Shown: piece by piece, positions 1 through 61,216 of the stretch
Layout of the letters: each line of letters starts with the position of its first letter
How positions within the stretch are numbered: position 1 is the stretch's first letter
Virus record (IMG/VR): IMGVR_UViG_3300045988_055475
Span: 1-61,216 of that record
Reading direction: 5' to 3' (one strand)
From: a virus
Length of the DNA stretch: 61,216 nucleotides
The notes under the pieces: generated by a model
Database searches by the model: none
Told to the model about the DNA's origin: nothing
What the model saw: only the letters and a program-made list of their open reading frames with translations
Made by a program: the position numbers and the translations under genes

Positions 1-55
1 ACCTTATCTGATTACGTTAGGCGTTTAGCTGCTGGTAAGACGAAAAAGTTTGCTG
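1..55. repeat. Terminal direct repeat: nt 1-55 are identical to 61162-61216. This is most simply the overlap from circularising the assembly.
   Basis: Exact 55-nt match read directly between window start and end; an ORF continues in frame across the junction. Confidence 0.85.
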
Positions 56-10834: not shown

Positions 10835-12628
10835 ATGGCTATTCTCTTTAAAAACAATGCTGCTTCTACACTAGACTACATGTATCAAGCTCCGGATAAA
10901 GACTTTGTCGATATCTACGTGGTTGATCCTACTGTCTTTCCTACAATAGCTTCAGGTTCTGATGACTACTTTTACTTGACTCTTGTTGGTGAAAATGCAC
11001 TCGAGATAGTAAAAGTCTTTGCTCAGATAACTAATGTTAATACGGGTAAGCTTGCCTTTAGGTCTTATCGCGCACAGGAAGGTACTACTGCGCAGGAGTG
11101 GACCAAGGGTACTCGTATAGAAATGCGTATCACTGCTGAGGCTCTTGAGTCTTTTGTACCTACTGCTGTACAGCTTGCTCAAGATAACTTGGACGCAGTC
11201 GGTGTTGCTTCTACTACGAACGTTGGTTTTGCTGGTGTAGACGGAAAGACCACGAAGGCTGACGCTGAAGGTGTGATCACTGCAAAGGACGTGGCGATTG
11301 GCGGGGATCTTGCGGACTTGGCAACCGCACGAGGACAGCTTGGTCCTGCAAAAGAGCTTGGTAGTGGTGTAGACTATAATACAGTTACTGAAGCAGGCTT
11401 TTACTTGATCAATGCAGCGGGTGGTGTGAACGGACCACTTAAGGGAAGTGCTATCTACCTGCACGTTTTCTACAGTAAAAAAGATGCTTTGGCAAAGAAT
11501 CTGTATCAGATAGCCTATGCCTATTCAACAACAAGAGATCGTGTGTTCGTTAGGCAGTACCGCACAGCAAGTAAGGACTGGTCTTCTTGGTCAGAAATCA
11601 TATCGTCTGCGAGCATAGGTGATGGCATTCGTATTAACAACGGTATCATCTCTGTACCTGAGTATGAGGGTGCTACAGCATCTACTGCTGGAACGTCAGG
11701 TCTTGTTCCTCCCGCAGCAGCAGGAGAACAGGAAAGGTTCCTGACTGGTGGTGGTGAATATAAGCCTGCACTCTCGACTAAGGGTGGTTTGTTGACAGGC
11801 AGTGTGCAGATGAACGATACTGCGAACGTGATTAGTACAGCACCTGCTGCTAATACTGACCAAGGTTTGTTTCTCGCCGATAAGAACGGCGCAGTCATGG
11901 GTGGGTTTGATACCATCCAACGTGCTTCTGACAACGTGAAGTGGACACAGCTCTTTTCAAAGAGCAGCAAAGGGAACGTTGCATCTATCGCTGCTGTGGC
12001 TCATGAAGACGGCACAGGCGAGATTATTACATACAATCCTCTTCTGCTCAATACCACTCAGTTAAAAGAGATCATTGACAACGGTAACAGAGTCTTCATG
12101 CTTAGTGGGGATAACAGCAAACCGGGTTATACATTCAGGTTCTCCCCTGACACTGGTGAAGCGTATATGGATGGCCGTGCAATACATGCGAAAGCTGACT
12201 CAGCTGTATACGCAGACACAGCTGGAACCACACGCACAGCTGAAAGTGCTGCTTATTGGAAAGCTCTGAATTCTGGTGGAAACTACACCTTCCATGATGA
12301 AGTACTAGGTGAGAACCCTCCATACATTATGGGGTATGCACTTAATAGCCTGTTTAAAATATACTCAACTAGTGCATTAAGTGTAAACTATGCAAATTCT
12401 GCAAACTATGCCAATACTGCAGGCAGTGCCAACAATGCCTCCACCGCATGGCAAACGACTATAGTGCCTAATGTTACCTTTGTTGGGCGTGGTGGCACTA
12501 TGCCAGCTGGAGGTTCTTGGCTTTACATCTATATGCCTTATGACAGGCACTTTCTGACGAGCATGATGCTGGCTGGTGGTGCTGGTGCCCCGGACAATGA
12601 CGGCGGCATCGCTATAAAGGTTGGTTAA
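10835..12628 (+). CDS. Second tail fibre or tailspike-like protein (597 aa) sharing its N-terminal anchor domain with the preceding fibre
   Basis: N-terminus 'MAILFKNNAASTL...RAQEGTTAQEW' parallels 'MAIQFANNAATTL...RAQEGTTARAF' of the 10043 gene. Confidence 0.72.
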   Translation: MAILFKNNAASTLDYMYQAPDKDFVDIYVVDPTVFPTIASGSDDYFYLTLVGENALEIVKVFAQITNVNTGKLAFRSYRAQEGTTAQEWTKGTRIEMRITAEALESFVPTAVQLAQDNLDAVGVASTTNVGFAGVDGKTTKADAEGVITAKDVAIGGDLADLATARGQLGPAKELGSGVDYNTVTEAGFYLINAAGGVNGPLKGSAIYLHVFYSKKDALAKNLYQIAYAYSTTRDRVFVRQYRTASKDWSSWSEIISSASIGDGIRINNGIISVPEYEGATASTAGTSGLVPPAAAGEQERFLTGGGEYKPALSTKGGLLTGSVQMNDTANVISTAPAANTDQGLFLADKNGAVMGGFDTIQRASDNVKWTQLFSKSSKGNVASIAAVAHEDGTGEIITYNPLLLNTTQLKEIIDNGNRVFMLSGDNSKPGYTFRFSPDTGEAYMDGRAIHAKADSAVYADTAGTTRTAESAAYWKALNSGGNYTFHDEVLGENPPYIMGYALNSLFKIYSTSALSVNYANSANYANTAGSANNASTAWQTTIVPNVTFVGRGGTMPAGGSWLYIYMPYDRHFLTSMMLAGGAGAPDNDGGIAIKVG

Positions 12629-13203: not shown

Positions 13204-13461
13204 ATGACCTATGGAAAGCGAACCTTGATTGCTGTTGATCAGCTCTTTAATGCAATCCTCGGCGGCTGGCCGGATGAAACCTTGTCCTCGCGTTGTTATC
13301 GTTGGGATAGAGACGGGGTGAGGACGTGGCCCCGCAAGTTCGTAGACGGGTTGTTCTTCTGGCAGAAGGAACACTGCAAGAGCAGCTACGAAAGCGAGAA
13401 GGAAGGGAGACAGTTACCTCCGGAATTGCGTCCGCTTAGTGCAGAGCCTGCTGGTCAATAA
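13204..13461 (+). CDS. Small conserved-looking hypothetical protein (85 aa)
   Basis: ATGA-type junction with upstream gene; Trp/Cys-containing globular-looking sequence. Confidence 0.45.
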   Translation: MTYGKRTLIAVDQLFNAILGGWPDETLSSRCYRWDRDGVRTWPRKFVDGLFFWQKEHCKSSYESEKEGRQLPPELRPLSAEPAGQ

Positions 13462-19399: not shown

Positions 19400-22300
19400 A
19401 TGGCACTGGATGGTGTTTTGAATACGAATATTTCTGCAGCACAAGCGTATGCTGCTGCTCAGGCTGCACCTGCCTCTTCTGGTGTACAGCCCTATAGTGT
19501 TGTGATGGTCCCGGGCCTTACTGAGCAGGGACCGATGCAAGATACTCTTGCTCGTCGGGCTGCGTACCCGCGTCAGCAGTTTACGACTAGTGTTCCTCGT
19601 AGAGGGCCTAGTCAGGCTGATCTTGGACCTGCCTACGTAAGCACAGTACCTGATGAAGTTCCTGTGCACATGGCTGTTCCGGCTTTTAGTGGTTACTCTC
19701 AACCGTTTGAGTATCAAGAACCGAAGCCAGAACATGGTGAATATGTAAAGGGTTTCCTTCGTTCTATTCCTCAGACACAAGCTCTTGTTGCTGCTGGTGG
19801 TGCTGCTCTTGCTGACCTTATGGGTCATGAACAGACTGCTGGTGATTTGATGTACTATGCACAACAGAAGCAAGAAGAAGCACAAGCTCCTGAGCTGAAA
19901 GCTGCTGTTGAATCTTACAAAGATGTAGACAGTATTCAGAAGTTTGGTGATTACTTTGCTAGTCTTCTTGGCGAACAGACATTGAATGTAGGTATGTCTC
20001 TGACTGGTGGTGGCGTAGGTGCTGCTGCGGGTAAGAGAGTACTTGCTGGTGCTTTGTCTGGTGCTATTGAAAAGAAGACTGCTCAGCTTGTAGCTTCTGG
20101 TGTTGCTGAAGCTGAGGCTCGTGCTGCTGCTACTAAAGCTGTGACCGCTACTGTTGGTGCACAGATTGGTGCAATGGCTCCTGAGTTTGTACTGAACACT
20201 GGTGAGAACTACTCTGGTAACTATGCTGAGGGAGGGTTGCTTACTTCTAATCCCGGCATGGATATTGGTACCGGTATCTTGCAGTCTGCTGTTACACTGC
20301 TTGGCGGTGAAAGTCAACTGCTTCGTAAGATGACTGGCGTTAAGGTACCTGATGCTGTTGAACGTACTTTCAAGGAAAAGCTCAAGGCTTCTGCGTTGTC
20401 TCTGCCCAAGGCCATGATTGGTGAAGGTGCAGAAGAATACACACAGGAATGGTTGGGTGCAGTAAACAGTATGATTCAGGACGGACGTGCTCAGCTTACT
20501 GCTGATGACTTCGACCGTATGATGGAGGCTGGTATTGCTGGTGCTCTTGTTGGTTCTGCCTCTGGTGGAGCTAGCGTTATGGTTGACATGTTCAAGCATT
20601 CACCTAAGACAGACATTCCGTATGTTAACCCAGACCAGACGCCTCTTGAACTTCAGACTAAGTTTGAAGAAGAGCTAACTAAGATTGATCCCTTCACTCA
20701 GATCTCTAAGGGTGAAGGCATCATGCGTGATGCTATTCGTGTAGAAGCACAGAAAGCTGTAGCTGCTTCTGAAGAATCTTTTGCTCGTGCTCGTAATCCT
20801 ATTGTCAATGCTTTGCGTAAGACAAAGGATGAGTTGACTACTGCTCGTGCAGGTACGTCCCCTAAGTACGCTCTGCTTGCTACGCAAGAAGCAAAGGACG
20901 CGTACATCAAGAAGCTTGAACGTGCCCAGCAGAAGTATGCTGCCCAGCTTGCTCGGCTTGCTCAAGCAGAGCGTGAAGACATTAAGCAACGTAAGCAACA
21001 GTTTGAGAAGGATCTTTCTGAGTCTGATAAGAAGGCTCGTAAGGCTTTCCGTGAAACTGTAACAGAACGCTTTAAGAAGCTCGGCTATGATACCAACCTT
21101 ACGGCTGAACAGATTGTTGATGACCGTAGGTATCAGGAAGCTTTGTTTAAGAAAGACCCGGTCAAGTACACTGAGATTATAAACAGCATTCAAGATACTC
21201 AGCAGTACGTACAGCGTAAGCTTAATCGTGCTGACGAACGTATGTCTAAGCTGCACGCACGTAGAGCTGAATACAATGTATTCCTTGAACTCTTGCAGCA
21301 GAATGCTATTCCGTACAGCGAACGCCAGTATGAGTTTGTTACAAGTGAGCTTGCTCGTATTGACAAAGAACTTGCACAGACAAATAGATTGAAGGCAGAA
21401 GTTAGAAAATCTGCCGTCAACCTTGCTCGTTCTGCTGCACGTTCACAGGACTTGTCTGAGATTCAGACGAACATGGATGCCTTGTTTGCTAAGGCAGATA
21501 GGCTTGACCCTGCTGTTCCTTTTGAACTTGACTTGCGTAAGCAGTTGAAGGATCTTGCAGACAAGGAAACTCAAGACCGTATTGATGCTCTGCTTAAGAA
21601 TGCACGTGCTTTGCGCAGTACAGCCAAGCTGACCAACGATCCCAATTATACGTGGGATGCAGACTTTGCTGACTGGCAGGCTGCACAGATGGGCTCCTCT
21701 AATCAGCAGGCTGCTCTGCCTAGTGCTGATGCTTTCTCGCAGAAGTATGGTGCTCTTCAGCAGAATGTTGCCCTTGAGCAAGCTGCTGCTCTGAACAATC
21801 AGATTGATCGTGACAGAGTTGCTGCTGACCAGTACATGCGTAACATGATTGCTGAACAACAGCAGCGTGCGTATGAAGCTTCTCCTGCTTATCAGGCGCA
21901 GCTTAAGGTGGCTCAGGATAAGGCTAGCTATGACAACGCTTTGGATGGTAACATCCCTGCACGTCAGGCTATTCCTCAAGAGACTTCTCAAGCTCGTCGT
22001 GACCTTGAGTCTGAACAGCTCAGGCGTATGTACAAGCAAGAGCAGCGGTCCAAGCAGATTCGTAATGACATTGAAGTACAGCGCCAGTCCTTTGAACGAT
22101 ACACTCAGCAGGAAAAGGAAGTAGACTTCCAGCTTGCTTCTGAAGCTACGCAGCAGGTGTACGACTGGATGAAGAACACGTTGACTCAGCTTCCCGGCTT
22201 GAAGGATGTTGTGTCTATCTGTTCTTCTGTCACTGACAGCAACGTGCCTACTGCTGTGCATGATGCTCTTGTTAACCTGTCCTTTAAGAGTACAGACAAG

Positions 22301-25300
22301 AAGGCTATTCCGCAGGCAGTGTACTGTGATGGGAAGATCTATGTGTTCGCTGACCGAGTAAAGTCTAAGGCACAGGCAGTACGTCTGCTTATGCACGAAG
22401 GTGTTGCTCACTATGGTCTGCGTGCTATCATGACTCCTCGTCAGTTTACTGGATTCATGGCTGCTGTCTATCGTGATGCTTACGACACTCCTCTGTGGAG
22501 AGAGTTTGAACGTCAGCGTCCTGCATACGAGAATGCTAATGACCTCGTTCGCACAGAAGAGTTCATTGCTTGGATAGCTGAACGTGAGTCTCCTAAGTCT
22601 TTGCTTGAACGTCTCCCTGTCATTCGTGACCTGTACAAGTTTATTCGTAAGCTGTATCAGAAGTTGTTTGGTGTAGACGGTTATGTTACTGAAGCTGATG
22701 TCAAGGATGTCCTTGCTGCTTCTGCACAGAATCTTGCCAGCACCAAGCCTCAGGGTGTTTCCTCTGGCTACACTATCTGGGGTCGTGCTACGTACATGAG
22801 CTCGGCTATGAATAACGTGGCTCCTCAGTACGAACGTGTTGACCTTGTGGGCCCAGACGCTTTTGCTGCTCCATATGGTTGGGGAACTTACTTCTCTCAT
22901 CCTACGAAGCTTGCTGATTACTTCAGGAGATTCAACAACAAGCAGTCTGGTCTTCCCGGACAGATCTATAAGAACTACGCTCCTTCCTTTGAACAGTTCA
23001 TGAACTGGGAACGTCCTCTGTCTGAACAAAGATATGTTGCAGAACATCTCACCCGTTTGTTCAAGCAGATGCCTCCTCAGCAGGTTCCTGCACAGGATGG
23101 TATGCATATCCAGTTCTTGGGTAAGGACATTGGTGTCTTCCTTGACAAGAATGAACTTACTCAGTTTATGAAGAACAAGAGATACCTTGAACGTGTGACT
23201 GGGCAGGATGTGTACGAATACCTTGCTTCTCAGCTTAATGACACTAAGCAGATCTCCAGTATGCTGAGAGACTTGGGTGTGGCTGGTACTACCTTTAACT
23301 ACAACAACTCTCAGAGCTATTGTTTGTTTGAAGGTGATGATATCAGTCATACTGCTCCTGCATACAGTTCTCCTGAAGTTCGCTTCATGATAGCTGAAGA
23401 TACTACTTACAGTGACATGCCTCCTCTCTACCTTGAAGAGTGGAAGCGTGCACAGATGAGACAGCAGAACTGGAATGGCTTTATCGCTAAGGTAAGAAAC
23501 CTCGGTAAGTCCGTGGGCTTGGACGGTAAGCTAGTTTCACACACTGGCTTTGAAAGACTCGTAGATGGTATGTACGACAAGTATCGTCGTGTTCAGATCG
23601 TGCAGAGGTATATCAAGGATACGATTGGTAAGAATGTCATTACTCCTGCTACGAACATCTACCGTCATTTGACTGGTATGGTGAACAGGATTAACGAAAA
23701 GCGTACTGACATCATGAACCAGAAGTTTGCTCCTCTTTGTGAAAAGATTGGTAAGCTTGACATCCCTGCTGTGAAGGAAGCTCTTGACGATCTGCGTAAG
23801 GCTGGTCGTAAGATTACTGAGCAGGACAGGGTCAATGCTATCTGGTCTGCTCTTGACGAGTTCCTTCTGGCTCGACATGCGCTTGAACGTAACGCTGAAG
23901 TTAACAGGCGGTATCGTGGTAAGAATAAGCTAGAGTCTCCTTCTGGTCTTACTGACCAGCAGGCACAGGCTATCATTGACAAGTACTCTGACGTACCGGG
24001 TATGAATGAGATTGCTGCACAGTTTGACCAGCTTGGTAGATACCATCTGGACTTGCTGGATAAGTATCGCATTGTACCCAAGACTCTTACTGACAAGCTG
24101 CGTGCTACCTATAAGCACTACGTCCCGTTGAAGAACTGGGAAGAGTTCGTCGACGATCTTGATCCTGACTATGCACACAAGAGATCTAAGGCTGGTATTT
24201 CTATGGGCGGTCGGGAGTTGTTGAAGAAGGCGAAGGGGCGGGAAGGTCTTGCAGAAAGTCCTTCTACACACCTGATGTTGCAGATCATGGATACTATCAA
24301 CATCGGTGAGAAGAACGATGTGTCTCGTCGTCTGCTCAACCTCGTTCGAGAAGCTCCTAATGAAGAGCTGTGGGAGATCGCTACGGATAAGAATGAGAAG
24401 GGACAGCCCTACTTCCGTATGTCTGAGAAGGGAGACGGTACTCTTTACTATGTGAGGAAGTCGCATAGTCTTGAAGGTAAAGACTACAAGTTCATCAACG
24501 TAATTGATGAAAAGGGTAACCGTGTTCGTATTGCTATCAAGGACGCGGCTCTTGCTGCTGCCTTGCGTAATGAGAACAACCTTGAGACAGGCGCAATCAT
24601 TAACAACATTCGTAAGCTGACACAGAAGTTCGCTGCTCTGTACACTACGTACAACCCTGTGTTTGCTATCAAGAACTATCCTCGAGATATTCAGACTGCT
24701 ATCCTTAACGTAGGTAATGTGATCTCTGAAGCACAGGCAAACAACCTGCTTGGCAAGGAGAACAACATTCGTCAGCGTATCGTCAAGGACGCTATGTCTA
24801 TGCGCATGGTCAAGTTCCTCTGGGCAGAACTGAACGGTAAGGAATACGGCGGTAAGGATGCAGCGTACCTCAAGGAGATGTACAAGAAGTTTACTGAGTC
24901 TGGCGGGCATACTCGTATGTTCCTTGCCAACGACTACAAGACTATGTACAAGGATGTACGTGAGCTGTCAAAGCAGAAGGGTAAGTTTAAGGAAACTCTT
25001 GACAAGGCTCTTAAGTATCTGGACACTATTTCTGACGTGTCTGAAAATGCTACTCGCTTCTCTGTGTTCGTTGCTCTGACTCAGGAGTTTGATAACCATC
25101 TCGCTCAGGAAGCTAAGCGTAATGGTTGGTCTGCTAAGCAGATGCAAGAGATGATGGAAACTGCACATCAGCGTGCAGCTAACGAAGCTCTGGAGATCAC
25201 GGTTAACTTTACTCGTAAGGGTTCGTGGGCTCCGTTCTTCAACAGTCTGTGGGCATTCTCCTCTGCTAACATCGGTGGTAACGTGCGTATTCTGCGTAAC

Positions 25301-26383
25301 CTCTGGAGACGTGGAGACAGCTTTGCTAACAACGCAAAGAGAACTGCTGCTTACATGGCTTACTCAATCGCTTGTGGTGTTCCTCATGCTCTGTTGTGCA
25401 GATGGCTTATGGGAGATGACGATGACGGTGTGAGCAAGTATGATAAGATTCCTGACTACATCAAGGACAGTAACCTTATCATCCCTGCACCTTTTGGTGA
25501 CGGTGGCTACGTAAAGATTCCTCTGCCCTATGGGTACAACATCTTCTGGGTAGCTTCGAATGCAATAGAAGGTGTGATCAGCGGACGCACCAAACCTTCC
25601 TCTGCTGCTGCTAAAATCTTTGGTGCTTCCTTTGATAACTTCAACCCTGTTGGCGGAGCTTCTTTGTTGAACTTCATGCCTACTATCTTCCGTCCTATTA
25701 GTGAAGTAGTTGCTAACCAGAACAGCTTTGGTTATGCTCTTATGCCTGACAGCACACACAGCTTCAAGGGTGAAGTGCCTAACAGTCAGAAGTACTGGGG
25801 TACTAATCCTATGTGGTGTCGTGTTGTGGCAGAGACGCTGAACTCTTGGACGTTCGGGTCTAAGGTTGAGAAGGGTTGGATTGACGTGTCTCCTGAAACC
25901 ATTCAGCATCTTACTGAATCATACATGGGTGGTCTTGGTAGAGTCATCACTCAAGCTCTTAACATAATGGTTTCTCCTGTTACTGGTGCTCCTGTTGAGC
26001 TGAAGAATGTACCTCTTGCTAGTTCTTTCTTCGGCAAGGTTGGTTATGGTGATACACTTAATGAGTACAGTAAGGTTCGTAATAAGATTCAAGTAGGTTT
26101 GAATGAACTTGACCTTGCTCAGAAGGATACGACTCTTTCTCCTGACGAACGTACTGCGATTAGAAATAAGAACAGAACTATTCAGCAGCTCAAGGGCAGG
26201 TATGATTCTGTCAACGCTCGCTTGAACAGTGTACGTAAGCTTGAGAAGTTGAATGAAAAGAACAACAGGTCTTCGGGTGCTAAGTACTACGAAGAAAAGG
26301 AACGGCTGCAGAAGCGCAAGGAATTCTTGATGAAGGAACTTACTCGTGTGGCTAAGCAAGCAGGTCTTGACTACAGGGATTAA
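19400..26383 (+). CDS. Giant 2327-aa protein: candidate internal virion / ejection (injected) multi-domain protein
   Basis: Single uninterrupted 6.98-kb ORF after the tail genes; long coiled-coil and Ala/Gly-rich segments; no polymerase motifs recognised by eye. Confidence 0.8.
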   Translation: MALDGVLNTNISAAQAYAAAQAAPASSGVQPYSVVMVPGLTEQGPMQDTLARRAAYPRQQFTTSVPRRGPSQADLGPAYVSTVPDEVPVHMAVPAFSGYSQPFEYQEPKPEHGEYVKGFLRSIPQTQALVAAGGAALADLMGHEQTAGDLMYYAQQKQEEAQAPELKAAVESYKDVDSIQKFGDYFASLLGEQTLNVGMSLTGGGVGAAAGKRVLAGALSGAIEKKTAQLVASGVAEAEARAAATKAVTATVGAQIGAMAPEFVLNTGENYSGNYAEGGLLTSNPGMDIGTGILQSAVTLLGGESQLLRKMTGVKVPDAVERTFKEKLKASALSLPKAMIGEGAEEYTQEWLGAVNSMIQDGRAQLTADDFDRMMEAGIAGALVGSASGGASVMVDMFKHSPKTDIPYVNPDQTPLELQTKFEEELTKIDPFTQISKGEGIMRDAIRVEAQKAVAASEESFARARNPIVNALRKTKDELTTARAGTSPKYALLATQEAKDAYIKKLERAQQKYAAQLARLAQAEREDIKQRKQQFEKDLSESDKKARKAFRETVTERFKKLGYDTNLTAEQIVDDRRYQEALFKKDPVKYTEIINSIQDTQQYVQRKLNRADERMSKLHARRAEYNVFLELLQQNAIPYSERQYEFVTSELARIDKELAQTNRLKAEVRKSAVNLARSAARSQDLSEIQTNMDALFAKADRLDPAVPFELDLRKQLKDLADKETQDRIDALLKNARALRSTAKLTNDPNYTWDADFADWQAAQMGSSNQQAALPSADAFSQKYGALQQNVALEQAAALNNQIDRDRVAADQYMRNMIAEQQQRAYEASPAYQAQLKVAQDKASYDNALDGNIPARQAIPQETSQARRDLESEQLRRMYKQEQRSKQIRNDIEVQRQSFERYTQQEKEVDFQLASEATQQVYDWMKNTLTQLPGLKDVVSICSSVTDSNVPTAVHDALVNLSFKSTDKKAIPQAVYCDGKIYVFADRVKSKAQAVRLLMHEGVAHYGLRAIMTPRQFTGFMAAVYRDAYDTPLWREFERQRPAYENANDLVRTEEFIAWIAERESPKSLLERLPVIRDLYKFIRKLYQKLFGVDGYVTEADVKDVLAASAQNLASTKPQGVSSGYTIWGRATYMSSAMNNVAPQYERVDLVGPDAFAAPYGWGTYFSHPTKLADYFRRFNNKQSGLPGQIYKNYAPSFEQFMNWERPLSEQRYVAEHLTRLFKQMPPQQVPAQDGMHIQFLGKDIGVFLDKNELTQFMKNKRYLERVTGQDVYEYLASQLNDTKQISSMLRDLGVAGTTFNYNNSQSYCLFEGDDISHTAPAYSSPEVRFMIAEDTTYSDMPPLYLEEWKRAQMRQQNWNGFIAKVRNLGKSVGLDGKLVSHTGFERLVDGMYDKYRRVQIVQRYIKDTIGKNVITPATNIYRHLTGMVNRINEKRTDIMNQKFAPLCEKIGKLDIPAVKEALDDLRKAGRKITEQDRVNAIWSALDEFLLARHALERNAEVNRRYRGKNKLESPSGLTDQQAQAIIDKYSDVPGMNEIAAQFDQLGRYHLDLLDKYRIVPKTLTDKLRATYKHYVPLKNWEEFVDDLDPDYAHKRSKAGISMGGRELLKKAKGREGLAESPSTHLMLQIMDTINIGEKNDVSRRLLNLVREAPNEELWEIATDKNEKGQPYFRMSEKGDGTLYYVRKSHSLEGKDYKFINVIDEKGNRVRIAIKDAALAAALRNENNLETGAIINNIRKLTQKFAALYTTYNPVFAIKNYPRDIQTAILNVGNVISEAQANNLLGKENNIRQRIVKDAMSMRMVKFLWAELNGKEYGGKDAAYLKEMYKKFTESGGHTRMFLANDYKTMYKDVRELSKQKGKFKETLDKALKYLDTISDVSENATRFSVFVALTQEFDNHLAQEAKRNGWSAKQMQEMMETAHQRAANEALEITVNFTRKGSWAPFFNSLWAFSSANIGGNVRILRNLWRRGDSFANNAKRTAAYMAYSIACGVPHALLCRWLMGDDDDGVSKYDKIPDYIKDSNLIIPAPFGDGGYVKIPLPYGYNIFWVASNAIEGVISGRTKPSSAAAKIFGASFDNFNPVGGASLLNFMPTIFRPISEVVANQNSFGYALMPDSTHSFKGEVPNSQKYWGTNPMWCRVVAETLNSWTFGSKVEKGWIDVSPETIQHLTESYMGGLGRVITQALNIMVSPVTGAPVELKNVPLASSFFGKVGYGDTLNEYSKVRNKIQVGLNELDLAQKDTTLSPDERTAIRNKNRTIQQLKGRYDSVNARLNSVRKLEKLNEKNNRSSGAKYYEEKERLQKRKEFLMKELTRVAKQAGLDYRD

Positions 26384-41711: not shown

Positions 41712-41739
41712 AGTGCCTTGCTTGTTCAGGAGTTAAGGT

Positions 41740-42040
41740 CAACCTACTAATTCAGAAGAAATATAGTCTTAATGTTCAAGGCATTAGTTACCTATAGTAC
41801 TTATGAATTAAGAGTTAGGTTTAGACTTAAGATATTATACCTAATTAAAGTACTTACGAAGTAGGTTATTTAAGATATTATACTTAAGTAAGGTTAATTA
41901 ACAGTTAAGTTAAACTTAATTATATTATAATACTTAATTAAATTAAGTCAAGTTAACTTATTAAGTAATATAATAAATAAACCTAAAGGTTAATCTATTA
42001 GGTTTACTTATTAAGTAACCTATAGTACTATATGTATAAG
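41740..42040. repeat. AT-rich iteron block between helicase and primase genes: candidate replication origin
   Basis: Direct repeats 'acttattaagtaa' (x2), 'taagatattatac' (x2), 'cctatagtact' (x2), 'aggtttaS' (x2) in a roughly 300-bp ORF-free, very AT-rich tract. Confidence 0.5.
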
Positions 42041-50557: not shown

Positions 50558-51003
50558 GACTGGCTCCTTTGTAGTCAGTAAGTTGATCTTATGAAGGACA
50601 TGATGCACATCGCTAGACTATCTTACCTGCCATATTCAGTAACAACTTCGCAGCATGGCTAGCCGGTACTCATGTTACTTGCGTCATCCACTAGCTTTGT
50701 GTTCGACCCAGACACAAGTTGTGTATCCGTAGTTTGCTTTTGATGTGCCGACATTGAGCACAGTATCAGCAGCCATCGAGGATTCTACACCTCACTCTGA
50801 TACACAAGTTTGCAAAGCGTTTACCTAACCAACAATTCATTAGCCACCCTAAGTCTACATGTTCGGTGGAGCGGACCTTGTGCGGAGGCTGCAACCTACC
50901 AGTTGCGTTGGCTCTCTTGTACACGACAGTGTCTGCCTTACTCCTTTCACTTGCAACCTAGTTCCAAACAAGGCCGAGTTGCCCCGGCCCTGCTTGTTAT
51001 GGG

Positions 51004-51504
51004 TTACATGGGATGGGAGTTAACGAGGGGCTTGATTTTATCCATCACATCCTTGGTCAGAATCTTGGACATGATGAACTCCTCAATGCCCGAGGCTTCA
51101 CGCAGAGCGTCGACAGAGGCAAGCGTTGCCGCATCGATGGCCGTCATGAAGTACTTGGCCTTCGGGTCGTCTTCGCCAACGTTCGAGACAAACGCACCGC
51201 CCATGATGGACAGAGCCTGTGCCAAGCTGAACTTGAACAGAGCTTCGTTCAGCGGATTGGATTTGATGAATCCGCCCATGCCCCAAGGCAGGCCGGATGC
51301 AATCACATCGGTCACGTTGTTCAGAACCAGACGACCAGCAGCGAGCTTGGTGATAACCACACCGGCTTCCTTGGTCTTGTCAATCTGACGGTGCATGGTG
51401 GGGGAACTGGTCACGCTTTTGGCAAGGCCGATAACCTTGGCACCGAAACCCATGGGCTCGTGCGCTTCTTCCACGTCGATGATGAACTCATTGTTTTTGT
51501 TCAT
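51004..51504 (-). CDS. Hypothetical protein (166 aa)
   Basis: Protein-like ORF in GC-rich island. Confidence 0.5.
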   Translation of the reverse strand: MNKNNEFIIDVEEAHEPMGFGAKVIGLAKSVTSSPTMHRQIDKTKEAGVVITKLAAGRLVLNNVTDVIASGLPWGMGGFIKSNPLNEALFKFSLAQALSIMGGAFVSNVGEDDPKAKYFMTAIDAATLASVDALREASGIEEFIMSKILTKDVMDKIKPLVNSHPM

Positions 51505-51534
51505 GTGTTACATACCTCCATGAGTTTCAGTGTG

Positions 51535-52584
51535 TTACTTGCTGGCCTTGGCGATCTCTTCGGAGATCTGCTTGCACTTGTTCTGCAGGGCGATGCTGCG
51601 CTTGCGCAGGTTCTGGATGCTATTACGCTTTTCTTCCAAAGCCTTCTCAGCACCGGACTTGATGATGGGGTCGTTGATCTTGGTGATGGTCTTTTCGCTG
51701 GCAGCGAGAGCCTTTTCACCTTCACGCAGTTCAGCTTCCACATTGGTCAGTTCATCGGTGGCTTCAGCCAGACGGCTCTCACGAACCTTGTTCATGCGGG
51801 CATCGTTCTTCCGCTTCTGAATGGCCTTGGTCACCACGTCACGGTGGAACTTGCAGAGGTAGCTGCCTTCCAGCTTGCGTTCATCATCGGTGATGTATTC
51901 CTGCGTGTCCTTGTCGGTGGGAAGATGGAAAGGCTTCTGCTCGGCCACCTTGCGAAGGACACTGCCGCAACCTTCAAAGGCGCAGCGAAGCACAGGCTTC
52001 TCGGTCTTACCAGCCTTGGCGTCCTTGTTGGGCAGGAGAAGAGGCGTAGCCACTTCAGGGCCGACCTTCACGGACACAGGTTCAGCTGTGGTTTCTTCCT
52101 TGACTTCGGCCTTGATGGGATTCTCGATGGCGTTGGCGGTGACACCAGCGGGCTTGGCTTGCGTGGAGAACCGGGGCTTGGTTTCCTTGGTGCCGTCATC
52201 CTTGGGCAGAACACCGAGCATCTGGAGGAAAGGCTTGGAGTCGAAGGTCTTGGAAACCACAGCCTGCATGTCAGCGGTCGCGCTGTCTTCCGCCGTGCCG
52301 CGCATCTGGAACACACCCGCCTCGTCACACACACGCAGGAGTTCATCGGCAGCGTCCATCGTCATGCCGAGTCCGAGGTAGTGAAGGGCTTTGCCGTGGG
52401 CGGTGTCCGGGTCAGCGAGGGAAGCAGCGGTCAGCACAGCGGAGGACGTAAGCACACCCTGAAGCACGGTGGGATTGGCAAAGAGGGCTTCCTTCGCAGC
52501 CTTACCAGCGATACGGGCGGTCACGAGCTTGCCAGCTTCAGCGTTGGAGTCGAGGACGATCTTGAAGATGTTGCGCATGGACAT
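51535..52584 (-). CDS. Hypothetical protein with central C/C/C/H zinc-binding-like site and C-terminal coiled coil (349 aa)
   Basis: 'CAFEGCGSVL...CKFH'; E/K-rich heptad-like C-terminus. Confidence 0.55.
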   Translation of the reverse strand: MSMRNIFKIVLDSNAEAGKLVTARIAGKAAKEALFANPTVLQGVLTSSAVLTAASLADPDTAHGKALHYLGLGMTMDAADELLRVCDEAGVFQMRGTAEDSATADMQAVVSKTFDSKPFLQMLGVLPKDDGTKETKPRFSTQAKPAGVTANAIENPIKAEVKEETTAEPVSVKVGPEVATPLLLPNKDAKAGKTEKPVLRCAFEGCGSVLRKVAEQKPFHLPTDKDTQEYITDDERKLEGSYLCKFHRDVVTKAIQKRKNDARMNKVRESRLAEATDELTNVEAELREGEKALAASEKTITKINDPIIKSGAEKALEEKRNSIQNLRKRSIALQNKCKQISEEIAKASK

Positions 52585-52650
52585 AGTAAGTACTCCTAAT
52601 GGTTTGATGGTTGCTGTTCGTTGTCTGTTTATATGGTACAGTAACAGATG

Positions 52651-53088
52651 TTACTTGCCCCGCTTGGAAGGTTCAGTGCCTATGATGTAGGCAATGGCAT
52701 CGGCCTCAGCTTTACCGATGTCAAGAACAGAGAAGCCGACAGACCTCACCGGAATGTCGTCATCAGGTTGCGACAGTTCCATTCCCATGCCGGGATATTT
52801 ATGGGCAAGATACTTGTCCTTACCCCGGCGCTGACGTTCACGTGCAATAGCAGCGGCCTGCGATCTGGTCTTACCACACACAGGACATTTGCACGTGGGA
52901 CACAGGCGTTCATACTTGTCACCAACAGGCACGAGTTCCAGCCTGCGCTTGACGCGTTCAATGATGCGGGCCTGCGGGCTATCATGACCATAGAACTCAA
53001 CCAGTTCCTCAAAGAACTTGACAACCTCATGGTCAAGCGTAGCAGAACCAACTGGTGTTCCCATAGAATATATCTCCTTGTTGTTCAT
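52651..53088 (-). CDS. Hypothetical Zn-ribbon protein (145 aa; may start at second Met, 53064)
   Basis: 'CPTCKCPVCGK'; a strong RBS 'aaggag' precedes the internal ATG. Confidence 0.5.
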   Translation of the reverse strand: MNNKEIYSMGTPVGSATLDHEVVKFFEELVEFYGHDSPQARIIERVKRRLELVPVGDKYERLCPTCKCPVCGKTRSQAAAIARERQRRGKDKYLAHKYPGMGMELSQPDDDIPVRSVGFSVLDIGKAEADAIAYIIGTEPSKRGK

Positions 53089-57065: not shown

Positions 57066-57641
57066 TTAACGAAAGCGACGGGACGAACGAGTGCTTGCCA
57101 TGTCAAAATCGTCTTCCGTATGCACGACGACCTTAGCATGACGACTAACACGACGCCGAACCTTTTGAGGCTTATCCAGAGTCACGATGGCGCAAGAGTA
57201 TCCATCTTGCTTGTCCATAACTTCACCAGTGCCCACGTTAGTAGTACGATACTTAGCGCGTGGGCGTTCGCTTGTACGTACCTTACGGATGTTGATATGC
57301 TTGCCATGCTTGCCAGTTACGGACTTGTTTTGTCCGTATTCGGCATACAGGAAAGGCACATCTGCCAGACCGGGGAGAACAGGGAAGAATACCTTCCGTT
57401 CTGCTGGTGTTAAGTCAGAATAACGCTTGATAGTACCAGCAAAATCAGACCATAGAAGTGTCTTAGTGTCCAGAAACTGGCCATGCTGGTTTCTATAGCC
57501 TACACATTCCCCGCGCTTGTTCCAAACCGGACTATAACGCAGGTCTTCCTTTTCCGTCTGGTAAAGGTTATTCATGCCCTGATTCCTACAGATATTCAGA
57601 GCATTAGCCTGCCTCTTATAACCTTGTGGTTTATCGTGCAT
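57066..57641 (-). CDS. Hypothetical basic protein (191 aa), possibly DNA-binding
   Basis: RBS 'aggag' 9 nt before ATG; Arg/Lys-rich; first gene downstream of the long ORF-free region. Confidence 0.55.
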   Translation of the reverse strand: MHDKPQGYKRQANALNICRNQGMNNLYQTEKEDLRYSPVWNKRGECVGYRNQHGQFLDTKTLLWSDFAGTIKRYSDLTPAERKVFFPVLPGLADVPFLYAEYGQNKSVTGKHGKHINIRKVRTSERPRAKYRTTNVGTGEVMDKQDGYSCAIVTLDKPQKVRRRVSRHAKVVVHTEDDFDMASTRSSRRFR

Positions 57642-58450
57642 AAGTCAACTCCTGATTTAAACAACTTGACTGGTTGCAAGGGTATAACGCACCCAAGGCA
57701 CCCCATTCCCCTGCAACTGTCAAACTGTTTACAGACGGAACACCTTTATCTATTATTTATAGCCGTTGTACTGTCTCCAACGCAGGATGGAACGCATCCT
57801 TTTAACGCCAATACTCTACGGCTGTAACTTTTCTAAGGTTACTTTCAGTCTACCCTTTGAGCCGACTTATCACGTTGCTAGGTTGTAAATCTGCAACATC
57901 GTTTACGGTTTATCGGTAGACTATAGGCTTGCTGTAAGTAGGACTTGCCCCTAACCTACCTTGCACAGTGCACAAGGTCGCCAGTTAGCTTGTTCCGTCC
58001 TCTTGCTTATACGTCGCACCTAGGGATAATAGGAGTATATAAGCAAGCCCCGGCTTTTCTGTACGTCCCTACCTGCTAAACTACTACTTACACAAGCAAC
58101 GCATCTAAGACACTTTGCTAAGAGTGTAAGCCTACTATAGTTAGCTTTACGGCAGAACACGCATAACCTGCAAGCTCCATGCATAGCTCACCTTTCGGCT
58201 TGCCATAGCTGCGCCTTGTACTTGTGTGCAGCTAGTGCAGGAAGATACCATAAGCTGATACCTTTCGAAGTGCATCCGCACTTCTCGACTTCATCCGAAG
58301 TCTCTCAAGTTCTTTAACCGACTCCGCAAGCAAACGTTTTCATGCTGCTATGTTCTCGTTCCCACGACGACCTTGTGGCGGTCGTGGTACTATCCTTTGC
58401 AAGCTCCGCTTGCTAAAGGCGACCTCTATTGGAGTAGGTTTTCCCTCTTT

Positions 58451-58500
58451 CGTTGAAAGTGTTCTCTCATAAGTCATTGCGCTTGTCAAGTACTTTTGCC
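58451..58500. repeat. Repeat element copy A ('cgttgaaa'-N23-'cttgtcaagtactttt')
   Basis: Shares both end motifs and their spacing (31 vs 32 nt) with copy B at 58679-58727. Confidence 0.45.
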
Positions 58501-58559
58501 TTTCTTGTATGTGTCGTCGTTGCTCATTTTTCCGGCTGGCAACTACTCTTTAGAACGCC

Positions 58560-58607
58560 TTAACGTTCGCAAGCAAAGAACAGCTAAACGCTGTTTAACG
58601 TTCGCCT
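58560..58607. repeat. Two perfect 11-bp direct repeats 'ttaacgttcgc' flanking a 6-bp-stem hairpin 'aacagc-taaac-gctgtt'
   Basis: Exact repeats at 58560-58570 and 58597-58607; each contains palindrome AACGTT. Confidence 0.5.
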
Positions 58608-58678
58608 ATTTCTGGTTTCCAGACACAAAGGCAAGTACTCAACAAAGACGCTATTCGCTTTTGAAAGAACACATTCAT

Positions 58679-58727
58679 CGTTGAAATGGACTCTACGCGG
58701 CTTATGTGGCCTTGTCAAGCACTTTTT
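58679..58727. repeat. Repeat element copy B ('cgttgaaa'-N24-'cttgtcaagcactttt')
   Basis: See copy A. Confidence 0.45.
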
Positions 58728-59496
58728 CAACACTTTCTAAAAGAACGTATCGTGTGGGATGTACCCTTCCGATGCCTCTTATATAGCAAGCCTTGTGCCA
58801 AAACGTAAGTAGTTGAAATTATTGACTATTGGTTATCCTATAAGTTCAACTTTTTGTACCTGCTAGGTGCGCCGGCAGGTGCTTGTGGAGCTTATGGAGC
58901 CATGCTGTGCATAGTTCTATAAGTACTACAGGTACTTAGATCATGGTTCAAATATTGGTACGTTTGGCACGCATGAATACAATAAGTTGAACTTATGTGT
59001 AAACATGTGTAATTATTCAACCTTTTGACCATGCTAACCATAAGTAGTTGTTTTAGTTAGCTTTTGGTTACGTTTGGATACTATTAGTTGCTGTTGATAA
59101 CCATTAGCAGCTATTTAGTGCTATTGATTACCATTGCTGGCAGGTTTGGGGTCTTTAATCCTACCCACAAGCTAGGTTATAGGTTACCAACACTGCTAGG
59201 AGTAACACTTCAAACCTTAGGAGTCACACTGTACTTTCTTTCACAAGGGGGAGGGGGTCAAACCCTACCCGTGGGACACAGCGGAGGCACGGGGGTACAG
59301 ATGACACAGACTTCGCTCGCAACTTTTTGGGAGCTGAATGACTTCATCAGAATCATTTCTATATACGTATAGTACTCATAGTTCAGAACAAGTCTAGGAG
59401 TCATGCGTACATACCTCCAGCTATATTCCAGCATACGTAACCAACAGTAGTCAGGAGTAGTCACTAGCTACCGGCCCGGGCCCTACCTCTTGGCTC

Positions 59497-59569
59497 ACTA
59501 AAGTTTTTTAACTTTTTTTAAACTTTTTTCACTCAAACCCCTTGACTTTTGAAAAAAACTGATTATCAT
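59497..59569 (+). promoter_or_regulatory. Strong sigma70-type promoter with upstream phased T-tracts (UP/bent-DNA-like): -35 TTGACT 59542-59547, 16-bp spacer, -10 TATCAT 59564-59569
   Basis: Three T6-7 tracts spaced about 10-11 bp apart (59504-59530) immediately upstream of near-consensus hexamers. Confidence 0.5.
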
Positions 59570-59583
59570 ATTCATATGAATAT
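59568..59583. promoter_or_regulatory. Perfect 16-bp palindrome ATATTCATATGAATAT overlapping the -10/+1 of the 59542 promoter (operator candidate)
   Basis: Sequence equals its reverse complement. Confidence 0.55.
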
Positions 59584-59898
59584 GAAATCACGGAGTGATT
59601 CGCAGGCTAGCTGCTGTGATTGATTGGATGATTAATTGTCTGAGATCTGTCTCAGTTCACATGCAGAGTATTTGTACTTGAGCACTACATCTGCTTCTCA
59701 TGTGAACACGCTCTCTTTAGGTTGTGAGCGAGCCTCAAAGCGAGCGAACTACTTAGGTAGTTTGAGTTGATTAGGACATGGGAGAATAGTATCTAATGAC
59801 CTGTAACCTTCTCTCCGACTTATTAGAACTAAGCTACGCTTCGTAGTCAATAGGGCCGAGCGCCCCCATCAAATCTGAACACTAAGATATTAGTTGAC

Positions 59899-59966
59899 CA
59901 AAAGAAAAGCCCCCGTGCTAAATAGGATCCATGCTTTGCATAGTGCCTATAGTAGCCGGGGGCTTG
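59899..59966 (-). terminator. Intrinsic terminator for the 296-aa minus-strand gene (long-loop hairpin)
   Basis: 'aagcccccg'...'cgggggctt' stem preceded on plus strand by 'aaaagaaaa' (U-tract on minus). Confidence 0.5.
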
Positions 59967-60009
59967 TTGCGTTTAGAGCACCGTAAAGGCGTAGCCTTGG
60001 AGGTGCGAC

Positions 60010-60900
60010 CTATGTGTCTTTCTTATCTATAGCTAGCTTTCTTGGTTGACTTAAAAGATGCTTACTTGCTTCTTCCTTGGTTATCTTACCAAACATATAA
60101 TCGTACTTGACCTTGTTACTTGTAAAGTACTTGCTTGCTACATACTTAAGTGGTACCTTGATGAGTTCATCTGTGTAAGCTGCCTTGACATAAGGAGGTG
60201 TCTCAAAGCCAAGGTAGACCGTGTTCATGTGTTCACGTTCTGTACCAAAAGGTTCTATGATGTTACTCTGTGCCATCTCTATGTACTCGTCTGTATACCC
60301 TGTATATTCAAAGGTCTTGTCAAAGACTTGTTGCATATACAAAGCACCTCTACGCCAGTGTCTTGCATAGTAGTACGGATGGTTAGTTGCAGACACTTTC
60401 CATGTAAACCATGTACGTTCATGTCCGGGAAAGAAGTCAGTTGTTCGTGGCACAACCACAGCCTTAAGCTGAGGGTATTCTCTAAAGACAAAGTACCTCT
60501 TCTTAGGTGCACGAGACACACGCTTAGTCACACCAAAGCAGTCACGTGTTACTTGTGTCAAAGGTCTGCTGTACGTCTTCTCTTCAACAGTGATGACTGC
60601 AAAGTCTTTAAGGTCGATACCTCCTCTGTTCTTTAAACCGTTAGACAAACACCAGAGCATAACGTTAACCATTCTGCTTACTTCACTTTCAGGCAGATAG
60701 TTAAAGAAGATGTTCAGGTCATTTACAAGGTCACCTTTTGTGTACAGACCTCTGTCCCACTGTCCTTCTACTTCACACTCTGACAAACCCTTCTGACACC
60801 TACAGTTAGGGATCTTATAAGGTTCAGGTGTGTCTTCGTTGAGAATGGGATTCCTCCGCCACTTTAATTTCCTACGGTCTTTTTCTAGAAGCATCGACAT
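60010..60900 (-). CDS. First gene of the minus arm: hypothetical protein (296 aa), candidate early/host-takeover function
   Basis: Clean ORF directly downstream of the P(-) promoter at 61023-60995; aromatic- and Arg-rich. Confidence 0.6.
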   Translation of the reverse strand: MSMLLEKDRRKLKWRRNPILNEDTPEPYKIPNCRCQKGLSECEVEGQWDRGLYTKGDLVNDLNIFFNYLPESEVSRMVNVMLWCLSNGLKNRGGIDLKDFAVITVEEKTYSRPLTQVTRDCFGVTKRVSRAPKKRYFVFREYPQLKAVVVPRTTDFFPGHERTWFTWKVSATNHPYYYARHWRRGALYMQQVFDKTFEYTGYTDEYIEMAQSNIIEPFGTEREHMNTVYLGFETPPYVKAAYTDELIKVPLKYVASKYFTSNKVKYDYMFGKITKEEASKHLLSQPRKLAIDKKDT

Positions 60901-60939: not shown

Positions 60940-60967
60940 TTGACAAAATTCATATAGTTCTTATACT
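60940..60967 (+). promoter_or_regulatory. P(+) promoter: -35 TTGACA (60940-45), 16-bp spacer, -10 TATACT (60962-67)
   Basis: Consensus -35 and 5/6 -10, positioned 78 nt upstream of ATG 61045. Confidence 0.55.
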
Positions 60968-60987
60968 ATATTTTAGGTTATAGTATA
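60962..60987. promoter_or_regulatory. 9-bp inverted repeat 'tatactata'-N8-'tatagtata' overlapping the P(+) -10 (operator candidate)
   Basis: Exact reverse-complement arms. Confidence 0.5.
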
Positions 60988-60994
60988 CATAAAT

Positions 60995-61023
60995 ACTATA
61001 ATCACTAATTGACACTTTGTCAA
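60995..61023 (-). promoter_or_regulatory. P(-) promoter read on the minus strand: -35 TTGACA (61023-18), 17-bp spacer, -10 TATAGT (61000-60995). Its -35 lies inside the palindrome 'ttgacactttgtcaa' (61009-61023).
   Basis: Consensus hexamers with optimal spacing; the 15-bp palindrome provides TTGACA on both strands. Confidence 0.55.
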
Positions 61024-61044: not shown

Positions 61045-61216
61045 ATGGATAGTCAAATTTTACTAGGGATCATTAATGGTCTGTCAAGCTTAGTAAAAGA
61101 CGCTGACTATATATCACTTGCAATGCTGGGAGGGACTGCATTCATTATCCATGAATGTGCAACCTTATCTGATTACGTTAGGCGTTTAGCTGCTGGTAAG
61201 ACGAAAAAGTTTGCTG
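61045..61216 (+). CDS. 5' part of the first plus-arm gene; it continues in frame into 1-606 across the circular junction (about 240 aa in total, hydrophobic N-terminus, function unknown)
   Basis: ATG at 61045 preceded by 'agaagaaag'; reading frame is continuous with position 1 and the listed ORF 79..606; lies downstream of the P(+) promoter at 60940-60967. Confidence 0.55.
   Translation, partial: MDSQILLGIINGLSSLVKDADYISLAMLGGTAFIIHECATLSDYVRRLAAGKTKKFA
61162..61216. repeat. Second copy of the 55-nt terminal direct repeat (same as 1-55)
   Basis: Exact identity to positions 1-55. Confidence 0.85.

Follow-up and report, generated by a model that had tools for sequence, protein, structure and literature searches.

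Few large structured RNAs of unknown function have been described in bacteria and their viruses, and the study of each of OLE, GOLLD, ROOL, and HEARO has so far revealed unexpected biology. GOLLD and ROOL are roughly 800 and 600 nt in length. Both have been found in phages, and both form RNA-only assemblies (PMC12286853). The lytic Vibrio phage ICP1 offers a different sort of precedent: a gap of about 1 kb without open reading frames (ORFs) gives rise to a transcript of about 800 nt, the most abundant RNA (PMC7567579). The subject of this work is a gap of 2,368 bp (positions 57,642-60,009) in a viral genome, IMG/VR record IMGVR_UViG_3300045988_055475, whose 61,216 nucleotides were analyzed in full and are called here the window. 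The left 1.0 kb or so of the gap, read on the minus strand from about 58,684 to 57,660, specifies a multi-domain, highly base-paired RNA. It is a new family among large structured phage RNAs of unknown function.

The RNA is like GOLLD and ROOL in being a large phage RNA of several domains, supported by covariation, without known function, and with a variable periphery around conserved cores. It differs from them in its greater length (about 1,000 nt), in giving no match to their Rfam models at E <= 10, and in its position, which is at the head of an early operon and not beside tRNA genes. The genome has none: ARAGORN found no tRNA or tmRNA in the window. The case of ICP1 is comparable in that there too a lytic phage carries a kilobase-sized gap without genes, from which comes a large non-coding RNA whose role is unknown. 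The ICP1 RNA, however, lies beside the lysis cluster and is known from its expression without a structural model, whereas the present RNA is known from structure alone. Homology between the two is not expected.

The argument for the RNA is drawn from how its sequence varies among relatives, which are contigs of 61-63 kb from IMG/VR and metagenomes, several of them labeled human gut. Three alignments over 58,670-57,660 were examined with RNAalifold, giving 194 consensus pairs, 78 of which show compensatory changes. IMG/VR and metagenomes of the human gut supplied the alignment of the 3' part, which held 31 distinct core sequences. Here (58,085-57,650) there are 104 pairs, 37-38 of them changed on both sides, and of 3,223 cells, 99.2% hold a standard pair. 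Sliding the 3' partner by 1-3 columns lowers the figure to 33-41%, with 2-6 compensatory pairs, and none of 500 shuffles matched the observed covariation score. Domain 1 (58,670-58,460) has 49 pairs, 12 of them compensatory, and 97.8% of its cells are paired (37-44% when slid), while Domain 2 (58,265-58,050) has 41 pairs, 28 of them compensatory, and 94.9% of its cells paired (31-41% when slid). Over the three alignments, slid controls were 31-44% paired, with 0-7 compensatory pairs per alignment. Some changes are evident by eye, such as that in the first alignment from UAGUCUACC/GGUAGACU to UACUACAGC/GCUGUAGU.

The same pairs reveal the strand. G·U accounts for 13-17% of pair cells and A·C for about 1% or less. 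A·C is what G·U becomes when the opposite strand is read, so the excess of G·U identifies the minus strand as the one transcribed. An unbiased scan for helices found 25 that covary in the minus sense and 7 in the plus sense, and the folding of the single sequence (57,655-58,650) gave z = -10.5 for the minus strand and -6.6 for the plus strand. A structured RNA should exhibit compensatory pairs beyond controls and a defined strand, and both are found here. The orientation is that of the early/replication gene block, which the RNA directly precedes. An original prediction, made from the window alone, had judged the gap not to be random sequence. This is amply confirmed by the z of -10.5 against shuffles and by the conservation of the gap, which equals that of the flanking genes: blocks with 75-95% column identity (per 50 nt) are separated by segments rich in indels.

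The closing helix of Domain 1 is formed by GUUCUUUCAAAAG...CUUAUGAGAGAAC, with 58,653-58,634 paired to 58,497-58,478, and its variants run from GAGUACUU/AAGUACUU to AAGAGCU/AGCUCUU to AAGAACUU/AAGUUCUU. It had been noticed previously that paired elements of roughly 50 bp sit on either side of two perfect 11-bp direct repeats and a hairpin. All of these exist: the elements at 58,735-58,685 and 58,505-58,455, the 11-mers (TTAACGTTCGC) at 58,560 and 58,595, and the hairpin between the 11-mers. They had been taken as DNA repeats, and here the earlier view needs amendment, because several of them belong instead to the RNA or to its promoter. The right-hand element is the minus-strand promoter, and the left-hand element is the 3' strand of the long RNA helix. 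The latter and both 11-mers fall inside Domain 1, where one of the 11-mers forms a hairpin stem. Within the left-hand element, AAGUACUUGACAAGCGC pairs with 58,653-58,634, showing both double changes and changes from wobble to Watson-Crick pairs. The possibility that the left-hand element is a second promoter was considered and rejected: in this clade there is no -10 sequence at a workable spacing, and the element takes part in an RNA helix whose changes are compensatory or involve G·U pairs.

Between Domains 1 and 2 lies a region that is wholly missing from several relatives and that carries extra hairpins in others. Optional hairpins fit the pattern expected of peripheral elements in a large RNA. 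Their stems covary around a constant loop, as in GCAAGC-gga-GCUUGC, ACGUUC-gga-GAACGU, and GUAGAU-ggau-GUCUGC. Conserved GGA/GGAU loops on covarying stems suggest that the RNA may make contacts with protein, though the hairpins are optional. CsrB and RsmZ come to mind, as several hairpins here present the same loops on covarying stems. In contrast to those RNAs, the number of such hairpins is 0-5, they lie in a dispensable region, and a lenient stem cut-off shows no enrichment of them over shuffles. A protein sponge of the CsrB/RsmZ sort would have many GGA loops in all members, and what is found instead is 1-5 strong examples per genome and no variable region at all in several relatives. In the core, the unpaired motifs CGAUAAAC, GCUCAAAGG, and UUGGAGAC are invariant.

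How widely is the RNA distributed? It is conserved across a clade of 61-63 kb podophage genomes from human gut. A homology search with the 191-aa protein encoded next to the RNA found only this clade plus two outliers. In one outlier, L057, the neighboring protein is about 40% identical, and upstream of its gene lies TTGACA-17-TAGAGT, one of four promoter-like elements in tandem, after which come about 0.9 kb that are poor in ORFs. With R1, a covariance model built on the core (57,925-57,759), a single copy was detected in the window, at 209 bits, and L057 was matched across the whole length of the model (31 bits, E = 6e-6). The helices of L057 have changed in a compensatory manner, and the three unpaired motifs of the core are retained. 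Used in turn as query, the L057-type protein led to no further loci. A degenerate pattern of three blocks, composed of the unpaired motifs, was found in IMG/VR only in the same clade and not at all in GTDB (one genome per species). The lineage is widespread in human-gut metagenomes, and one cluster of the neighboring protein has 1,329 member sequences.

No known RNA family accounts for the sequence. Rfam 15, whose set includes GOLLD, ROOL, OLE, HEARO, raiA, group I and II introns, RNase P, tmRNA, 6S RNA, and riboswitches, gave no hits at gathering score over the whole window. At E <= 10, only two chance-level hits appeared in 57,400-60,200, and none appeared within the RNA of four relatives, L057 included. 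By eye, one can find likenesses to the conserved regions of RNase P, to R/S of group I introns, and to domain V of group II introns, but their order or shape is wrong and no model supports them. A check of the literature, which did not extend to the supplements of one large motif screen of IMG/VR (PMC10690425), found no account of the RNA. The motifs reported by that screen are all 29-151 nt in length, and a screen with a ceiling of about 150 nt would list the large RNA at most as fragments.

The predicted start of the RNA is at 58,684, give or take 3 nt, as judged from a sigma70-type promoter (Table 1). An A-rich tract precedes its -35 hexamer, the hexamers score 10/12, and it is among very few matches in the genome to TTGAC[AT]-16..18-TAnnnT, lying in non-coding DNA. 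Both hexamers and the 17-nt length of the spacer are kept in every relative examined, while the sequence of the spacer varies. The L020 type has TTGACA-17-TAATCT, and the distant L057 has the hexamers of the window. Constant hexamers and spacing around a drifting spacer argue that the promoter is real, with a start near 58,684. The promoter spacer can form a small hairpin with GNRA-like loops, but this is not maintained consistently and was left out of account.

At the other end, the long 3' hairpin terminates 6 nt before the Shine-Dalgarno sequence AGGAG (57,653-57,649) of the 191-aa gene. Because the U's downstream of the hairpin pair with an upstream A-tract, no U-tract is left free, and the hairpin is not a classical terminator. 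Probably it serves as an element of processing or stability. No promoter was predicted between the large RNA and the genes downstream. With neither terminator nor intervening promoter, the RNA is most likely the 5' part of an early polycistronic transcript.

The gene that follows has its own peculiarities. The 191-aa protein is very basic and is found only beside the large RNA. A 16-residue insertion distinguishes the protein in the window's subclade. In some relatives, an extra small ORF, carrying its own ribosome-binding site, lies between the 3' hairpin and this gene, of about 47 aa in three of them (L001/L004/L008, about 13,230-13,400) and of 79 aa in L057 (1110-1349). Neither this protein nor the 296-aa protein on the other side of the gap matches any family in Pfam or PHROG.

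The layout of promoter, leader, and hairpin recalls the early leader of T7, where tandem strong host promoters are followed by an RNase III site before the first early gene. Here too there is a strong sigma70 promoter (tandem in L057), a non-coding leader, and a two-stem hairpin before the first ribosome-binding site. The leader of T7 differs in being short and in lacking a conserved multi-domain fold, and RNase III cleavage in the present case is conjecture. The likeness is nonetheless what leads to the processing step in the following proposal.

I propose, as a best guess, that the large RNA is freed from the 5' end of the early operon and persists as a stable early RNA. Host RNA polymerase would start at the sigma70 promoter (58,718-58,690), probably making the RNA as the 5' part of an early polycistronic transcript, and the RNA would fold into D1-D4 plus the optional peripheral hairpins. 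Cleavage at the two-stem 3' hairpin, by an RNase III-like activity as in T7 early leaders, might then free an RNA of about 1,025 nt, which a hairpin at each end would stabilize. The weakest step is the last: the freed RNA would act as RNA itself, either as an abundant early species that binds or sequesters host or phage proteins or as a higher-order particle of the sort that GOLLD and ROOL form. The position of the RNA at the head of the operon argues that it would be transcribed first and abundantly. The size of the RNA, the several domains of its fold, its invariant unpaired motifs, and its indifference to inserted ORFs argue that the RNA works as such and make a simple on/off leader less likely.

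A leader might nonetheless be more than an on/off switch. One could suppose that the 1-kb structure acts purely in cis, as a riboswitch-like sensor, as an antiterminator akin to put, or as an element that stabilizes the mRNA or times its expression, with no function off the mRNA. It does lie, without terminator, between the sole strong promoter of the area and the first gene, its 3' hairpin abuts a ribosome-binding site, and aids to read-through would be useful in a leftward block of about 30 kb with very few consensus promoters. HK022 put and other RNAs of processive antitermination are about 70-120 nt. The present RNA resembles put in being a structured, promoter-proximal RNA that opens a long phage operon; it differs in size, and no similarity was detected. 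More generally, such elements acting in cis are known to span 70-300 nt, whereas this RNA has about 1,000 nt and four conserved domains. A riboswitch or attenuator would be expected to show a free U-tract, a conserved alternative pairing, or a conserved occlusion of the ribosome-binding site. In the present case the U-tract is not free, no conserved mutually exclusive pairing was found, and the partial occlusion of the ribosome-binding site seen here is absent in relatives. A candidate long-range pairing between the linker at 57,740-57,723 and codons 25-30 of the 191-aa gene lacks covariation and was rejected for that reason. Furthermore, the RNA is unchanged in relatives where a small inserted ORF separates it from the 191-aa gene. 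A purely cis-acting leader thus seems to me rather unlikely.

Could the RNA be a primer? RNA II of ColE1 is a structured primer RNA for a polymerase of the Pol I type, and the genome considered here encodes a family-A DNA polymerase and a promoter-driven structured RNA of several hundred nucleotides or more. Unlike RNA II, the RNA is not opposed by an antisense partner over its 5' part, its 3' end bears no signature of an origin, and genes follow it at once. If the released RNA does act on its own, then it may define a new class of very large (at least about 1 kb), ornate phage RNAs with the role of a machine or scaffold, for instance a particle that assembles itself or a decoy, deployed in the first minutes of infection, for a host factor of defense or gene expression. 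I advance this only tentatively. If true, such an ornate RNA machine would be among the largest structured RNAs of bacterial viruses outside of rRNA and self-splicing introns. The unusual size of the RNA, its clear architecture, its many covarying helices, and its host-type early promoter make it directly testable.

Several considerations weigh against what has been proposed for the RNA. The compensatory changes derive from few lineages, about 3-5 sequence types plus L057, so counts of cells overstate the number of independent events, and the structures were predicted on the same alignments that were used to count pairs. Part of the promoter element resembles the internal RNA segment 58,505-58,455 and could pair with the same partner if transcription started further upstream, in which case the 5' boundary could be wrong. 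The start, 3' end, processing, and abundance of the RNA are all deduced from sequence. Its position directly upstream of a gene also fits a leader that acts in cis, and the hairpins with GGA loops are missing from several relatives. Finally, nothing in the sequence points to a binding partner, and the AlphaFold model of the 191-aa protein (pLDDT 43) is unusable.

It remains to consider the gap as a whole, for which the original prediction made two claims that stand up well: that it is free of ORFs and that a recoded stop codon is not the reason. The longest ORF inside it is 94 aa, and the equivalent intervals in eight full-length relatives (2.28-2.54 kb) have longest ORFs of 53-122 aa at non-homologous positions. 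Stops are everywhere, 10-24 each of TAA, TAG, and TGA per frame in all six frames, with no open stretch longer than 94 codons. As every type of stop appears in all six frames, no reassignment of one stop codon can open a frame. One or more decayed protein genes, or an altered genetic code, would explain the absence of ORFs, which taken alone counts for such a view. Every relative, however, is ORF-poor here, even in the clade furthest removed, with 62% identity in the 191-aa protein. None of the eight full-length relatives has in the gap the intact gene that would be expected if the window carried a pseudogene. Substitutions keep base pairs rather than codons, relatives' gap sequences differ by indels that are not multiples of three, and the rest of the genome reads normally in the standard bacterial code. 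Decay and recoding were accordingly rejected, and either is highly improbable. Gene-free kilobases in packed phage genomes can be functional RNA genes and are not necessarily gaps of assembly or annotation.

The gap is probably a composite, a non-coding control region at the head of the leftward early/replication gene block. Three roles had been suggested for it: a packaging or terminal-repeat region, a second origin, and a locus for non-coding RNAs. The last is strongly supported for the left 1.0 kb, by covariation on the minus strand, and is plausible for the right 0.4 kb, where promoter and terminator are conserved and no ORF occurs. The pyrimidine-rich plus strand, which had been likened to the antisense of coding DNA elsewhere, is real as a bias but small, 53.5% in the gap compared to 51.9% in the minus-strand gene block. 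The parts of the gap are set out in Table 1.

Table 1. Features of the gap and its borders, in window coordinates
Feature	Position	Strand	Basis or remark
Flanking ORF, 191 aa	57,066-57,641	minus	left edge of gap
Large structured non-coding RNA, ~1.0 kb (D1-D4 and 3' hairpin)	57660..58687	minus	covariation, folding
Long 3' hairpin, 70 nt	57660..57729	minus	-40 kcal/mol; lower and upper stem, small internal loops
Most conserved core, 167 nt	57759..57925	minus	94% mean column identity
Domain 3	57926..58049	minus	GGCUUGC/GCAAGCC helix closes multi-branch subdomain
Domain 2	58050..58265	minus	hairpins and long irregular stem; three sequence types, one architecture
Variable peripheral region	58270..58459	minus	0-5 optional hairpins, several with GGA/GGAU loops
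Domain 1	58460..58670	minus	long closing helix enclosing three hairpins
Sigma70-type promoter	58690..58718	minus	TTGACA 58,718-58,713, 17-nt spacer, TAGAGT 58,695-58,690
Conserved block	58755..59085		75-91% per 50 nt; minimal covariation
Degenerate, roughly phased short repeats	59074..59143		TTGRWWACYATTRGYWGC, CAATNG every 10-11 nt
Direct repeat, ~24 nt	59183..59205 and 59,427-59,450		minus sense YUACUCCUnnnnAnUGUUGGUWAC
Conserved G-run/C-run block	59224..59320		76-78% conserved
Hypervariable tandem-repeat segment	59298..59400		hot spot of relatives' contig ends
GGCCCGGGCC palindrome	59473..59482		GC cluster conserved, palindrome not
Plus promoter	59503..59569	plus	phased UP-like T-tracts 59,503-59,541; TTGACT 59,542-59,547; TATCAT 59,564-59,569
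Short non-coding transcript, ~0.4 kb	59576..59975	plus	predicted from promoter and terminator
Compound terminator hairpin	~59,896-59,965	minus, also plus	folding energies
Flanking ORF, 296 aa	60,010-60,900	minus	right edge of gap

The middle of the gap is of a different nature. The segment between the divergent promoters (58,760-59,500) is most likely DNA that is read by DNA-binding proteins. Structure at the level of RNA was considered and found to be unsupported in both 58,755-59,085 and 59,500-59,030, for covariation is near zero and there is no strand preference. Only 4 of the 40 pairs predicted in the conserved block are compensatory, and the blocks in 59,500-58,800 favor neither strand. 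What one finds instead are repeats. A 19-nt inverted repeat (58,996-58,978/58,858-58,840) lies within the conserved block. TGGTWAY occurs 6 times in 58,830-59,443, an excess of about 13-fold over its frequency genome-wide (0.73/kb). The sequence GTWACCTATA is found exactly three times in the genome, once here (59178-59187) and twice more on either side of an AT-rich gap near 41.9 kb (41787-41796 and 42015-42024). That it is common to the two loci hints at a protein-binding site that they share.

The features that had been described in this segment from the window alone fared variously. The G-run/C-run block is there and is conserved. The cluster of degenerate tgatWaccattRgcWg repeats is weak in this genome, with two copies within 3 mismatches in the cluster and 3 matches genome-wide against 0.94 expected, but clear arrays occupy the same place in relatives. 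The GC palindrome is present, while relatives carry GGCCGGGCC in its stead, so the exact palindrome is not conserved. The arrays of relatives, at the equivalent of 59,075-59,400 and absent from the window, were found in two genomes. L014 has 5.7 copies of a 24-nt unit with the internal inverted repeat GTTAC-N6-GTAAC (8296-8430) and 4.7 copies of a 10-nt unit (8532-8577), and L004 has 2.3 copies of a perfect 39-nt unit (11439-11529).

What might such DNA do? It could be a pac site, a physical end of the genome, or an origin activated by the divergent promoters, any of which would be compatible with the RNA. The iteron-like arrays that differ between L014 and L004 would fit this, as would the enrichment of TGGTWAY, the sharing of GTWACCTATA with the gap at 41.9 kb, and the strong promoters that read outward on both sides. 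The left end of T7 is non-coding and bears promoters, and the segment resembles it in a general way. Six relatives have contigs that break off at positions equivalent to 59,298-59,395, four of them approaching from the left and two from the right, and two pairs of ends and starts overlap by only about 7-13 nt. This cluster could mark a physical end or packaging site, or equally the breakage of assemblies at repeats of variable copy number. Against a terminus, the window is circularly closed and relatives of genome length break elsewhere. Nucleotides 1-55 are identical to 61162-61216, leaving 61,161 bp of unique sequence, and a complete, closed assembly with an overlap of 55 nt at its ends makes the ends of the window uninformative regarding physical termini. 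Against an origin, the segment is not AT-rich (GC 0.43-0.45), so the adjacent AT-rich unwinding element of an iteron origin is lacking. The array of iterons that would accompany it is clear in relatives and weak in the window, where repeats are barely above chance, and the gap at 41.9 kb is much more origin-like. On balance, a pac site, terminus, or origin here is quite possible but falls short of probable.

That other gap (41,712-42,031), between the genes for a DnaB-like helicase and primase, is a better candidate for the origin of replication than is the 59-kb region. It is about 25% GC by count, has three 25-nt direct repeats (at 41,827, 41,870, and 41,920) and several inverted repeats, and contains a consensus-like promoter on the minus strand at 41,951. 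The GC content over a stretch of 1 kb that includes it is 0.337.

The alternative for the middle segment is that it is transcribed after all, within a longer structured RNA of up to about 1.8 kb that starts near 59,490 from an unrecognized promoter, so that the element at 58,718 would itself lie in the transcript. The block at 58,755-59,085 is indeed as conserved as the core, the minus sense folds better than shuffles (z = -4.5), and two small hairpins there have G·U pairs in the minus sense, one of them covarying. The promoter element could pair with 58,653-58,634, and the tandem promoters of L057 imply that transcripts containing downstream copies of the promoter exist there. The scarcity of covarying pairs and the indifference to strand, described above, speak against the idea, as does the failure to find a sigma70 promoter upstream on the minus strand. 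The repeats change in unit and copy number between relatives, as arrays that bind proteins do. I regard a longer RNA as unlikely.

To the right of the middle segment, the strong promoter said to follow the palindrome does so, on the plus strand (TTGACT-16-TATCAT, 59,542-59,569), and it is kept in all relatives, as TTGACA-17-TATACT in most. The hairpin-rich non-coding sequence said to follow in turn is also there, about 400 nt of it, with a folding z of -3.8. No credible ORF was found in it, either in the window or in relatives. In most relatives, unrelated sequence stands in place of its first 230 nt or so, while the final 160 nt or so are conserved. The compound hairpin at its end can serve in both directions: on the minus strand, at -37 kcal/mol and followed by UUUUCUUUU, it is a strong terminator of the 296-aa gene, and on the plus strand it has -35 kcal/mol and is followed by UUGUUGCGUUU. 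The plus promoter would therefore appear to drive a non-coding RNA of about 0.4 kb, ending at a hairpin shared with the convergent gene. What matters may be the RNA itself or the act of transcription alone, the latter for example as insulation against read-through. A pair of back-to-back consensus promoters lies nearby (60940-61023), TTGACA-16-TATACT on the plus strand at 60,940 and TTGACA-17-TATAGT on the minus strand at 61,023. The former shares with the promoter at 59,542 an upstream context consisting of a T-tract and CCCCTTGAC.

The genome that carries the gap has no similarity in DNA to deposited phage genomes. The nearest cultured phages are of the HMO-2011 type and the CRP podophages of Roseobacter, with a portal identity of about 31%, and a search for a hint of the host among genomes, using the terminase, found none. 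Genes are arranged in two blocks. That on the plus strand (79-26,853) encodes the large terminase, an SU10-type portal, an internal virion protein, and a giant protein of 2,327 aa. That on the minus strand (from about 60,900 to about 27,000) includes genes for family-A DNA polymerase, DnaB-like helicase, primase, exonuclease, and ligase. One region (51000-53000) stands out by its GC content, 54-57% compared to about 45% elsewhere, and by long overlapping ORFs, one of 528 aa on the plus strand (51,013-52,599) and one of 349 aa on the minus strand (51,535-52,584), neither of which matches any family. The C-terminal 900 aa or so of the giant protein (19400-26383) match only giant phage families labeled as of unknown function (2,800-3,900 aa; phrog_14770, 616, and 10691).

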